Of a stretch of 9,492 bases of DNA, positions 1 to 2,750 are shown one piece after another. Origin of the DNA: a virus (taxonomy: Duplodnaviria; Heunggongvirae; Uroviricota; Caudoviricetes); the IMG/VR virus record IMGVR_UViG_2526164691_000020; one strand, written 5' to 3'. Every line of letters starts with the position of its first letter. Position 1 is the stretch's first letter. Both the position numbers and the translations under genes were made by a program. Under the pieces are notes generated by a model. The model did not search any database. It saw only the letters and a program-made list of their open reading frames with translations, and was not told the DNA's origin.

Positions 1-740
1 GGTTGCTGTGCGTGGGTGGCGGCGCTCATGTCAAACTCTCCCTGCATCCAGCACACCGCCAGCAACACATTTTTCGGGTTCTTCTGTAATGCAGCTTTGG
101 TGCGCGCAATCAGGTCCTGATATAACGGTTTACCCACACCCCAGCGCGCCGAATCCTGGCTGGCCCCCGTGTCCGCACTGAATGTCCCCTCCGCGCCCTG
201 GGTAAATGCCGAACCACCACGACAGCATGGTACCAGCAGGATCCCCGCGTTATTCGGGATATACGGGAGCAGTTTTTTGGCAATATGTAACCCCTGGCCG
301 ACACAGCCGTACTGCCCTTTGCTCAGGTCTGCCTTCGGATGATTCAGCGTACTCATATCCTGCACATCATGCAGGCAGTGGTCGGCCGGAATAATATCGT
401 TATATCTGCAGGCAGCCCCACCCGGCGTCACTGTACTGCGGCGCGCCAGCTGTTTAATGCGCGGATCCGGAGCATCGTATGAATCCGGCAGCGGAAGCCC
501 TTCACCGTAAGCCATGGCATTGGACTGCCCGGCCAGTACGATGACGTAGTACCAATCCGGCTCAGTTGCACCACTGACCACCACATCACCTTCTGCTGCA
601 ATCGCCTGCATCAGGGTATAAGGGGTTATGGCCACCGGACTACCAAACGGCTGCCAGCCCTCTTTCAGTTTGTGTGTCAGCTTTTCCGCAAGGTCTGACG
701 GCGACGCCGCCCTGACAACATCATAATGTTTAAATGTCAT
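1..740 (-). CDS. nanS: Prophage-type sialate O-acetylesterase (NanS-p-like, SGNH/GDSL hydrolase); 3' end runs off the window
   Basis: ATG at complement of 738-740 with SD GGGAGG (complement of 745-750). Frame is open to position 1 (no in-frame TTA/CTA/TCA on the plus strand). Translation MTFKHYDVVRAASPSDLAEKL...YYVIVLAGQSNAMAYGEGLP carries the GQSN catalytic-Ser motif. Family assignment is from memory. Confidence 0.8.
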   Translation of the reverse strand, partial: MTFKHYDVVRAASPSDLAEKLTHKLKEGWQPFGSPVAITPYTLMQAIAAEGDVVVSGATEPDWYYVIVLAGQSNAMAYGEGLPLPDSYDAPDPRIKQLARRSTVTPGGAACRYNDIIPADHCLHDVQDMSTLNHPKADLSKGQYGCVGQGLHIAKKLLPYIPNNAGILLVPCCRGGSAFTQGAEGTFSADTGASQDSARWGVGKPLYQDLIARTKAALQKNPKNVLLAVCWMQGEFDMSAATHAQQ

Positions 741-783
741 TATTCCTCCCGGCCGGGATAGTGTATTAAATCAGATATGGAGT

Positions 784-828
784 GGGCTGTAGTCCGGAAG
801 CCTGAATGACACACGGGGACTACAGCCC
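784..828. repeat. Perfect 12-bp inverted repeat (GGGCTGTAGTCC / GGACTACAGCCC) with 21-nt loop, in the nanS 5' leader
   Basis: Read directly: 784-795 is the exact reverse complement of 817-828. No U-tract follows on either strand. Confidence 0.55.
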
Positions 829-836
829 AAGAAATG

Positions 837-862
837 AAAAAAGGCCACGCAGTTGCGCAGCC
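837..862 (-). terminator. Intrinsic terminator (minus strand), 8-bp stem with two G-U pairs plus U6
   Basis: Minus-strand RNA GGCUGCGCAACUGCGUGGCC (complement of 843-862) followed by UUUUUU (complement of 837-842). Confidence 0.5.
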
Positions 863-924
863 TGATAAACCCTGGTTAAAATCCACACGATAACAACACA
901 ACAATATCAGTATCTCATGCTATT

Positions 925-949
925 GCCCGAACCCATTCGGGCATTTTTT
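925..949 (+). terminator. Intrinsic terminator (plus strand), 7-bp stem plus T6
   Basis: GCCCGAA-CCCA-TTCGGGC at 925-942 followed by ATTTTTT (943-949). Confidence 0.5.
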
Positions 950-953
950 ACCC

Positions 954-982
954 ATAAAAAATGCCCCTCCGGAGAGGGGCAT
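954..982 (-). terminator. Strong intrinsic terminator (minus strand), 9-bp GC-rich stem plus U-tract
   Basis: Minus-strand RNA AUGCCCCUC-UCCG-GAGGGGCAU (complement of 961-982) followed by UUUUUUAU (complement of 954-960). Confidence 0.65.
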
Positions 983-1182
983 GTTTGCATGCACATTCTT
1001 TTTCTTGCATGGTGCCGGGTGCCTCCCGGTGAATTCAGTATCAGCACCTGAATCCGCGATTATCACATATACCTGGTTGCTGATTGCCCCTCCGCACAGG
1101 GGGATTACCATGCAGTAGTATTTTTAATAAACAGCAAATAAAAAAATCAAGCATTATGCAGGCTGTTTCTTTTTATCACCGG

Positions 1183-1314
1183 CTACAGCAATACCACAAT
1201 GCCGCAGACCAGCACCCCATCCGCCAGCACCGACATGATTCTGCTGGTGAAATCCACCATCACCACCAGAAACAGCAGGAGTGCAGCCACAGCCAGGCGC
1301 AGTTTTACCGTCAC
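1183..1314 (-). CDS. Small hydrophobic protein (43 aa, predicted single transmembrane helix), translationally coupled to the upstream TerB-like frame
   Basis: GTG start (complement of 1312-1314) overlaps the TerB-like stop in a GTGA junction; SD GGAGAA sits 6 nt upstream. Translation VTVKLRLAVAALLLFLVVMVDFTSRIMSVLADGVLVCGIVVLL, stop TAG at complement of 1183-1185. Too short for the ORF track. Confidence 0.4.
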   Translation of the reverse strand: MTVKLRLAVAALLLFLVVMVDFTSRIMSVLADGVLVCGIVVLL

Positions 1315-1805
1315 AGGTGATTCTCCAGACGAAGACCCAGAACACCGGCAATCTCTTCCAGCACCTTGCGCTCTTCCGGCTCAATTTCGCCGTCTGCCTC
1401 CGCAATGGCCACCGCCACATCCAGCACATCTTCCGCTTCACGCGTATCGTGTTTCACATCCTCGATCTCACGTAACGCCGCACGACGACCAATTTTAAAG
1501 TTCGTATCCAGCTGACCGATAATGGTTGCGCTAATCGCATTAATTTCTGACGTAAACACGGACAGCGCAGGCTGATTACGCAGTACCTGTTCGATCTTCG
1601 CTTTCTAGGAAGCCTCACATTCACCATCTGCACAGGCCACCAGGTAGGCAGCATTAATAACCGCCTGTGCCAGATCGCGTTTCTCAAACTTTCCTTTTCC
1701 GGTTAACGTGACACACCAATAACTCTTGTCGAAAAAGCCAGCAAGCTGAAAGACCGGTATTCACAACCACCAGCGCGTTTACTGTACTGGCGTGATTTCA
1801 GTCAT
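1311..1805 (-). pseudogene. TerB-family (tellurite-resistance TerB-like) gene interrupted by three in-frame stop codons
   Basis: One frame runs from ATG (complement of 1803-1805) to TGA (complement of 1311-1313) with in-frame TAA (1779-1781), TGA (1761-1763) and TAG (1605-1607). Conceptual product ...GFFDKSYW...AAYLVACADGECEAS*KAKIEQ...VAIAEADGEIEPEERKVLEEIAGVLGL resembles TerB (MSFFDK... / ...SDG...E..K...EIA..LG). The track reports only the 82-aa tail (1311..1559). Confidence 0.6.
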
Positions 1806-1829
1806 AAAAAAAACCCGCCTGGCGACGGG
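1806..1829 (-). terminator. tR'-like intrinsic terminator directly downstream of the late promoter
   Basis: Minus-strand RNA CCCGUCGCCAGGCGGG (6-bp stem incl. one G-U, loop GCCA; complement of 1814-1829) followed by U8 (complement of 1806-1813), abutting the downstream ATG. Confidence 0.6.
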
Positions 1830-1860
1830 TGTAAAAAATCTTACTAACGTCAGGCATAAA

Positions 1861-1909
1861 ACGCCCATCGTTAGGGCAAACTTACCACAGATTCGGGAAA
1901 AATCAACAA
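1861..1909 (-). promoter_or_regulatory. PR'-like late promoter with lambda-type pause/qut motif
   Basis: Minus strand: -35 TTGATT (complement of 1901-1906), 16-nt spacer, -10 TAAGTT (1879-1884), then AACGATGGG in the initial transcribed region. Compare recalled lambda PR' GGTAAATTTGACTCAACGATGGG with window GGTAAGTTTGCCCTAACGATGGG. Lies 23 nt past the Q stop. Confidence 0.6.
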
Positions 1910-1928
1910 AGCTATCTGGTCACCTTTT

Positions 1929-2750
1929 TCAGTTGTTGTTCTGCCCATGCTTCTTCAATATCAAACTGCACCACCAGCGTATCGTAAAAACGTTTAACTG
2001 TTTTTTCCATGTATCAAGAGATATGGCATCGGTTACATTACATATGGCATTAAATGCCTCCGTTGAAGGTAATCTTTCATAGCCACGACCACCACAACGC
2101 TGGCAGTCTCTGATAACAGGCATACCACGTTTTACCGACTCTTCACGATGAATGGCAACACCGCGCCCACGACAATCTTTACAGGCGGTGGAAACCTCCC
2201 CCTTCCCTCCACACTCCGGACAGGCAACTTTTACCACCTCCCTGACTTTTTTCCATTCCTCCCAGTAAGACGGATACACGCCTTTTGTGCACTTTGCCCA
2301 CACTGGCGGCTTACCATCCGGATACTGGATCTTGTTTGTAAAAACCTCGCTTTCAATAAATTTTTTTCCGTGACAACAGGGGCACTGTTTTTTGCTCGCC
2401 GCGCTACGGGCATAATCTTCAAACGCATACGAAGCCATAATACGCATCACTGCCGGTTTTATTTCTGCCGGGAGTTTTCTTAACGCCGCCACGCGATCAC
2501 ACCGACTGAGTGCATATTCTGTCAGCAATTCTGTTGCCCGCTCTCTGTCATTCATACTAATGCCCATTTTCCCAAGGAACGCAGAAAACCCCATCTCAGC
2601 CCAATTCTGTGTCATGCCCTGCGCGGCCATCACATCAGTGATACTCAGCGTATCTTTCGACGTTGAGGCCGATGCATCAGTCAGGCCGAGGGATTTTGGG
2701 GATAGTATTTCGGTAAATCTTCCAGTTTCATTTTTTGACCTGCCCTTCAA
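1929..2750 (-). CDS. quuQ: Q-like late antiterminator (QuuQ/YdfT-like) with four DnaJ-type CxxCxGxG zinc-finger repeats; start codon uncertain
   Basis: 273-codon ORF from the track (TTG start at 2750 overlapping rusA; alternative ATGs at 2630 and 2615). Motifs CPCCHGKK, CPECGGKG, CKDCRGRG, CQRCGGRG read directly. Position immediately upstream of the PR'-like promoter supports a Q role. Confidence 0.65.
   Translation of the reverse strand: MKGRSKNETGRFTEILSPKSLGLTDASASTSKDTLSITDVMAAQGMTQNWAEMGFSAFLGKMGISMNDRERATELLTEYALSRCDRVAALRKLPAEIKPAVMRIMASYAFEDYARSAASKKQCPCCHGKKFIESEVFTNKIQYPDGKPPVWAKCTKGVYPSYWEEWKKVREVVKVACPECGGKGEVSTACKDCRGRGVAIHREESVKRGMPVIRDCQRCGGRGYERLPSTEAFNAICNVTDAISLDTWKKQLNVFTIRWWCSLILKKHGQNNN

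Follow-up and report, generated by a model that had tools for sequence, protein, structure and literature searches.

Decayed tciA–tciB cargo in the stx-less, Shiga-toxin-phage-like late region of a lambdoid prophage

Positions 1–2750 of a 9,492-nucleotide stretch of Caudoviricetes DNA (IMG/VR record IMGVR_UViG_2526164691_000020; the whole stretch is called the window here) very probably represent the first part of the late operon in a Qin-like lambdoid prophage, disrupted by insertion sequences (IS) and belonging to an attaching-effacing or enterohaemorrhagic (EHEC)-type Escherichia coli, in which the cargo slot downstream of the antiterminator gene Q holds a decayed tciA–tciB module (tciAB). 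The initial annotation had read this region as the late skeleton of a Shiga toxin (Stx) phage—Q, the late promoter PR′ with its terminator tR′, a cargo segment and nanS-p—with a TerB-like gene and a small membrane open reading frame (ORF) in the place of stxAB. All of these elements were recovered close to where that reading had put them; its description lacked a pair of small RNA (sRNA) genes, STnc100 and AgvB, that lies between cargo and nanS-p. The underlying idea of interchangeable cargoes is right, and it restates an established model, that of a moron site 3′ of PR′ (Tree et al. 2014).

The genes of this region lie on the minus strand, apart from the antisense sRNA gene AgvB, and they are given below in the direction of late transcription. 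Related copies in E. coli DEC9B (NZ_CP074760) and in O103 and O157 strains, annotated with the Prokaryotic Genome Annotation Pipeline (PGAP), served for comparison.

3108..2728, minus strand: rusA (Holliday junction resolvase), by Pfam RusA PF05866 and by PGAP in the DEC9B, O103 and O157 copies
2731..1912, minus strand: late antiterminator gene Q, from ATG 2731 to the true stop TAG at 1914..1912; the intact homologue matches PF03589 (Antiterm)
1906..1879, minus strand: candidate PR′, by alignment with lambda PR′
1872..1867, minus strand: AACGAT, a -10-like element, from invariant alignment columns
1830..1806, minus strand: tR′, predicted intrinsic terminator, by terminator scan and RNA fold
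1700..1683, minus strand: deletion junction within an A/G-rich run, by the homology break at 1690/1692
1692..1311, minus strand: tciA remnant (TerB family), by PF05099
1314..1183, minus strand: tciB (DUF3927 membrane ORF), by PF13064
1139..950, minus strand: STnc100-family sRNA gene (PasD/STnc100 group), by Rfam RF02076
888..949, plus strand: AgvB, an anti-GcvB sponge sRNA, by Rfam RF02702
863..842, minus strand: a further hairpin resembling an intrinsic terminator, on the late strand and some 100 nt ahead of the nanS-p start codon, by terminator scan
740..1, minus strand, cut by the window end: 5′ part of nanS-p/yjhS, by Pfam DUF1737 and SASA

The absence of stx, as claimed in the initial annotation, was confirmed: tblastn searches of the whole window with Stx1A/B and Stx2A/B found no similarity (best E 2.2, all E > 2), and the stxA and stxB genes that define a Stx-converting prophage by their position between Q and the lysis genes were missing. 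Both flanks of the slot match Stx phages. On the left, the segment 2800..1690 (rusA, Q, PR′, tR′) is 99.3% identical to Stx2a phage Stx2_EH1910 (LC567834) and diverges from it exactly at 1690; on the right, 1036..1 is 95% identical to many Stx1a phages, in which the matching block begins ~200 bp after stx1B. Stx2_EH1910, with a Q of the QuuQ type, is like the window in STnc100, in nanS-p (90% identity) and in the order of the lysis genes downstream, whereas its cargo interval contains a 65-aa ORF, a DNA methylase, three tRNAs, stx2AB and an antisense iraM, all of which are lacking from the window, where tciAB remnants are found instead.

The clearest case of one cargo standing for another comes from the commensal E. 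coli SCU-125, in which the order is Q, 65-aa ORF, DNA methyltransferase, tRNA Ile/Arg/Arg, intact tciA (143 aa), tciB and nanS-p: to judge from sequence, this is the layout of the Stx2a phage with tciAB in the very place where stx2AB sits. The proposal that the window carries an alternative to stx at the same site thus stands. STnc100 lies directly 3′ of stx1B, stx2B or tciB in the window and in four of four comparison loci (Rfam), and it is the right border of the cargo slot. Because the flanks are shared and STnc100 keeps its position, we describe a cargo interval that runs from tR′, with methylase and tRNAs optionally attached to this left border, as far as STnc100 on the right; on this comparative evidence stx and tciAB hold the interval interchangeably. 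Three hallmarks of a moron slot are present, namely Q upstream (frameshifted here), convergent sRNAs, and a lysis cassette downstream (in DEC9B), and PR′ with tR′ is predicted from sequence.

From position 1692 rightwards, the tciA–tciB–STnc100 block is 90–96% identical to JLK-2012 (NC_049942), PPyecE_EH1910 (LC567835), phage Evi (LR597642) and SCU-125. In these four, tciAB occupies the same position (from Q/tRNAs to nanS-p), and TciA (143 aa) and TciB (54–55 aa) are complete, unlike the copies in the window. The Q types of JLK-2012 and PPyecE_EH1910 differ from that of the window, and tciAB accordingly follows three Q types (window, PPyecE_EH1910 and JLK-2012); other cargo is also found after the Q type of the window, namely tRNA-Met, iraM and a DUF1737-only ORF in one phage and a TolA-like ORF in another. 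Phage Evi (positions 1985-4906 of LR597642) combines the same Q type with intact tciAB and the STnc100 region, followed by a holin gene; it has no nanS-p, so that this gene, too, counts among the optional modules of the late region. An antisense iraM, encoding an anti-adaptor that stabilises RpoS, is located between STnc100 and nanS-p/DUF1737 in Stx2_EH1910 (10446-10769) and in vB_EcoS-640R1 (3644-3979), a further small cargo that some phages of this Q type carry at a separate, second position of the region.

A site of this kind has been described before. Tree et al. (2014, Mol Cell, PMC4104026) found that sequence downstream of the Q-antiterminated PR′ tolerates moron insertions, that Stx2 occupies this moron site in Sp5, with convergent sRNAs 3′ of stx2B, and that a moron site with convergent sRNAs ahead of a conserved downstream ORF occurs in Sp5 (stx2) and in seven non-Stx prophages. 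In the Sakai prophages Sp3, 4, 5, 9, 10, 11, 15 and 17 the architecture—Q, PR′/tR′, moron coding sequence, an AgvB/AsxR-type sRNA facing an STnc100-type sRNA, nanS-p, lysis genes—is that of the window, where PR′ and tR′ are predicted elements, and the window differs from it by a 1.93-kb internal deletion and by pseudogenisation of Q and tciA.

The deletion is marked by a break in homology at 1690/1692, seen in four independent comparisons. Relative to SCU-125, ~1.93 kb is gone, comprising the 65-aa ORF, the DNA methyltransferase, the three tRNAs and tciA codons 1–17, and the junction fuses the ribosome-binding region of the 65-aa ORF (which follows tR′ in relatives) to tciA codon 18, with AAAAAG shared by both parental sequences at this point. 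ARAGORN found no tRNA genes in the window, those of the relatives falling in the deleted segment. Of 5426 complete E. coli genomes, 477 share this junction, in serogroups that include O157, O103, O145, O111 and O121, and with this recurrence an assembly artefact at 1690/1692 is unlikely.

What the initial annotation called a TerB-like gene is TerB-like as stated, but it is no longer a gene. The intact TciA homologue matches PF05099 at 1.8e-16 (60.9 bits; Pfam), and the remnant in the window, an 82-aa C-terminal ORF, still scores 32.5 bits against a cut-off of 24.4; measured against the 143-aa TciA of PPyecE_EH1910 and JLK-2012, which we used as the intact reference, it has lost its start codon along with the first 17 codons, and a change of GAG to TAG at 1607..1605 has placed a stop in frame. 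The tciA remnant is a pseudogene. PGAP flags tciA with an ‘internal stop’ in the DEC9B, O103:H2 12009 and O157 copies, and because of these flags and the 477 genomes that share the junction, the tciA lesions can be taken as real and widespread. Downstream, tciB (PF13064, DUF3927, at 6.8e-12, 45.6 bits) encodes two hydrophobic segments and starts at a GTG that overlaps the tciA stop (GTGA). It spans 43 aa, versus 54–55 aa in relatives, as TGG has become TAG at 1185..1183 (a substitution at 1184 relative to O103), leaving 12 residues fewer than in the 55-aa form.

The antiterminator gene has decayed too. Q belongs to the QuuQ type; undamaged, it encodes 273 aa that include a DnaJ-like zinc-finger region (CxxCxGxG), and the intact homologue in Stx2_EH1910 matches PF03589 at 4.7e-50 (Pfam). 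In the window, the reading frame 2731..1912 is 99% identical in DNA to the gene of the intact 273-aa protein, and a three-frame translation against that protein, together with a list of indels, showed this copy to be a pseudogene in which the frame shifts by -1 twice: through loss of a C near 2702, confined to the window, and through a shortening of A7 to A6 near 2006, common to the window and DEC9B. PGAP labels the DEC9B Q ‘frameshifted’, and the O103 and O157 copies of Q are intact at 273 aa. Directly upstream, rusA overlaps the start of Q, and the window copy is frameshifted near 2963 by an indel relative to DEC9B.

Between Q and the cargo, alignment with lambda and four relatives, including the Stx2a phage, SCU-125 and phage Evi, places a candidate PR′ with a -35 element TTGATT at 1906..1901, a 16-nt spacer ending in TGG (an extended -10) and a -10 element TAAGTT, TGG-TAAGTT occupying 1887..1879. 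After the -10 hexamer comes AACGATGGG, which aligns with the early transcribed segment of lambda PR′; hexamer and segment are both conserved with lambda. At the predicted transcript start, AACGAT (1872..1867) lies in columns that are invariant across lambda and the four relatives, and we take it to be the lambda -10-like element that induces the sigma70 holoenzyme to pause for Q loading. The -10 element reads TAAGTT in the window and DEC9B (G at 1881) and TAAATT in the O103, O157, Stx2a-phage, SCU-125 and Evi copies; this A to G change, which looks like a promoter-down change, accompanies the dead Q. The predicted tR′ at 1830..1806 consists of a 7-bp GC-rich stem followed by T8, with a fold of -22.7 kcal/mol (z = -2.9), and has the form of a strong, textbook intrinsic terminator.

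Transcription from PR′ to tR′ would yield a leader RNA of ~67 nt, over which an Rfam search of 780..1960 at a permissive threshold found no known family. The lambda PR′ leader RNA is 194 nt long. The predicted leader is shorter than this and shorter than StxS, a short PR′ transcript of the Sakai Stx phages that is made as 258 nt and processed to 74 nt (Sy et al. 2020, PMC7547250, where both StxS and lambda 6S are covered as short PR′ RNAs). The likeness to the lambda Q–PR′–6S RNA–tR′ system and to StxS lies in the conserved -10 hexamer and AACGATGGG and in the prediction of a constitutive short terminated RNA; Q itself is of a long zinc-finger type, unlike lambda Q.

To the right of the cargo, STnc100 begins 44 nt past the tciB stop and matches RF02076 at 131.3 bits (gathering score 47), with a terminator at 982..961 on the late strand. 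AgvB matches RF02702 at 96.5 bits, with 62 of 62 positions equal to the family consensus; it has its own terminator at 924..943 on the plus strand, converges on STnc100 and is antisense to late transcription. A convergent AgvB also attains the gathering score in two of the four comparison loci; in the window it lies well above that score. The other Rfam matches in 780..1960 at the permissive threshold were a sub-threshold AsxR over AgvB and a chance Phe-leader match. Zhu, Shabalina and Storz (2026, bioRxiv) relate PasD to STnc100, place these sRNAs beside a sialic acid esterase gene and include RusA and TerB in the conserved gene neighbourhood of PasA/PasC.

The nanS-p gene, encoding a prophage 9-O-acetyl-sialic-acid esterase, starts at ATG 740 and runs for 246 codons in the window before continuing past position 1; this part contains the DUF1737 (5.6e-16) and SASA (1.3e-11) domains (Pfam), with a GQSN motif in VLAGQSNAMAYG. 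The full DEC9B nanS-p encodes 616 aa, and a C-terminal DUF6645 is seen only there. The initial annotation had also suggested looking for holin and endolysin genes just beyond position 1, and in DEC9B, whose locus is 99.79% identical, nanS-p is followed by holin, lysozyme, Rz and terminase genes, a cassette that falls outside the window.

These features suggest how such a region would work and how this copy may have decayed. In an intact relative, Q would load at the PR′ pause site and carry RNA polymerase through tR′ and through the terminators at 982..961 and 863..842, with the read-through expressing cargo, nanS-p and lysis genes late in induction, while STnc100 and AgvB would act as separate, convergent sRNA genes. 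The 1.93-kb deletion, between short A/G-rich repeats, would have come first, and the nonsense codons in tciA and tciB would have followed. Cargo and Q would now be dead, and nanS-p could be expressed only where a sibling prophage provides a Q of its type; sibling prophages are frequent, a single genome showing as many as 19 matching places. What most likely still works here is the two sRNA genes, possibly the short PR′–tR′ RNA, and, given such a Q in trans, nanS-p.

How common the module is bears on its relation to stx. Counts were taken as megablast places, partial matches included, across the same 5426 genomes. The tciAB module gave 4256 places in 1140 genomes (median 4 per genome), partial matches among them, with a place covering ≥80% of the query in only 803 genomes; stx2AB gave 743 places in 602 genomes, stx1AB 360 places in 349 genomes and the nanS-p 5′ region 7323 places in 2180 genomes. 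Matches to tciAB are thus ~4 times those to stx1 and stx2 together (4256 versus 1103) and the most numerous among the three cargoes counted. The initial annotation had named, as a contrary possibility, that the arrangement is a common ancestral state with no relation to the stx insertion site: common it is, by these counts, but it is clearly related to that site.

Several points weigh against the picture of a tciAB-bearing, Q-controlled slot with real decay. The breadth of the tciAB count owes something to the partial matches just given, and the check that tciAB lies next to nanS-p covered the fetched loci only. A generic sigma70 promoter scan did not call PR′, its match to consensus falling below the scan threshold, and because of this PR′ was assigned by the lambda alignment; the activity of PR′, termination at tR′ and dependence on Q are likewise suggested by similarity. 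Finally, the whole window (1-9492) aligns over its full length to DEC9B (2311-11801), its nearest genome, at 99.79% with 5 substitutions and 15 single-base indels, an excess of indels more suggestive of errors in sequencing or assembly than of natural decay, and some of the frameshifts, including that at 2702, may be errors. The indels relative to DEC9B break rusA (2963), Q (2702), DUF968/ydfU (3506), relB (5581, 5589) and the ISEsa1-like transposase.

Taken at full strength, the last point would make this a functional late region, in which the frameshifts in Q, rusA, DUF968 and relB are all errors and Q drives tciB, nanS-p and lysis on induction. The ratio of indels to substitutions over 9.5 kb is indeed like that of read errors, and the 2702 indel is unique to the window, with O103 and O157 retaining an intact Q. 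We nonetheless consider this reading unlikely: the A-run frameshift at 2006 is also present in the independently assembled DEC9B, the early region is interrupted by IS elements in window and DEC9B alike, and the tciA lesions, being common to hundreds of genomes, are certainly real. A further possibility is that the truncated module has been kept for a function, for example that of TciB alone as a membrane peptide, or of the tciA remnant as a leader for STnc100 or a substrate in its processing. Such a function would account for the ~99% conservation seen in many serotypes and fits the occurrence of the same deletion allele in 477 genomes of several serogroups, as well as a tciB that is still open, still matches DUF3927 and ends 44 nt before STnc100. 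Recent spread with recombination among sibling prophages explains the identity equally well, however, and tciB has a nonsense codon, with its start coupled to an untranslatable tciA frame, while even the intact tciA is not preceded by a promoter-like site; such retention therefore seems very unlikely to us.

It would be more surprising still if the deletion allele formed a compact regulatory unit, in which a constitutive PR′ makes a ~67-nt StxS-like, Hfq-binding RNA and, on read-through, the untranslatable remnant of tciA acts as the leader sequence for tciB and/or STnc100; if true, it would give cryptic prophages a regulatory output independent of stx. Least credible is descent from a Stx phage that lost its toxin when tciAB replaced stx by recombination between conserved flanks, an origin that we regard as highly improbable. 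In their flanks, the window and Stx phages are nearly the same (Q block 99.3%, nanS-p block 95%), and the mosaic content found behind this Q type makes exchange through the flanks plausible. Yet tciAB matches outnumber those to stx ~4:1, tciAB follows at least three unrelated Q types, the intact parental tciAB layout is found in the commensal SCU-125, the window holds no remnant of stx, and the direction of exchange is not readable from the data. A slot shared by alternative cargoes, here with a decayed tciAB, remains our preferred reading.

The literature has already established that one Q-controlled slot of lambdoid prophages accepts several cargoes in exchange for one another, Shiga toxin genes among them, and control of stx by Q and PR′ is stated in a review (PMC8065619). 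Through their near-identical flanks, non-Stx sibling prophages can take part in recombination, and they can also supply Q in trans. To this our analysis adds the precise 1.93-kb junction, the pseudogene status of Q, tciA and tciB, and rough frequencies, which are of value for annotation and leave the general understanding unchanged.

The names tciA and tciB come from P1-type phage genomes, where a related pair occurs: the tciA-tciB(-tciC) genes of phages P1, P7 and D6 also place a TerB-family gene ahead of a DUF3927 gene, and part of the module matches at ~67% DNA identity. The context there is that of phage-plasmids and differs from the putatively Q-controlled late operon described here. To our knowledge, the P1/P7/D6 genes have no established function. 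A limited literature look-up, not specific for tciA function, returned no functional study of tciA or tciB; matches for tciA/tciB and DUF3927 were mostly unrelated papers on Trypanosoma TcIa/TcIb, surveys of P1-like plasmids and one mention of DUF3927. TciA bears the TerB name by homology. TerB occurs in ter operons, and by analogy with these one might guess at a role for TciA/TciB in membrane stress or phage exclusion. A promoter scan of the coding strand of the intact SCU-125 locus found no promoter-like site upstream of tciA, and expression of tciAB in lysogens independently of the late operon would at present be an unsupported proposal. The tciA gene also shows 67–71% DNA identity over ~360 nt to TerB genes of Erwinia and Salmonella jumbo phages such as vB_EamM_Asesino and pSal-SNUABM-04, located near the left end of their ~240-kb genomes, a similarity that is unusually high for such distant phages.

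A plus-strand reading of positions 1–2750 was considered and rejected, as that strand offers only short overlapping ORFs with no family match. Beyond the late region, the window contains a Qin-like block with hokD (5056..4901, minus), relE (5415..5128, minus), relB (~5656..5415, minus, split by indels), ydfV and flxA (6190..6522, plus), followed by an ISEsa1-like transposase (7959..6907, minus) and IS2 orfA (8798..9127, plus), the early region of the prophage having been replaced or interrupted by IS elements. A full-length match to the sok antitoxin RNA (RF01794, 99.3 bits) lies at 8544..8373 on the minus strand, between IS2 and the ISEsa1-like transposase; given its distance from hokD, it probably represents an orphan relic of a hok/sok locus in the disrupted early region.

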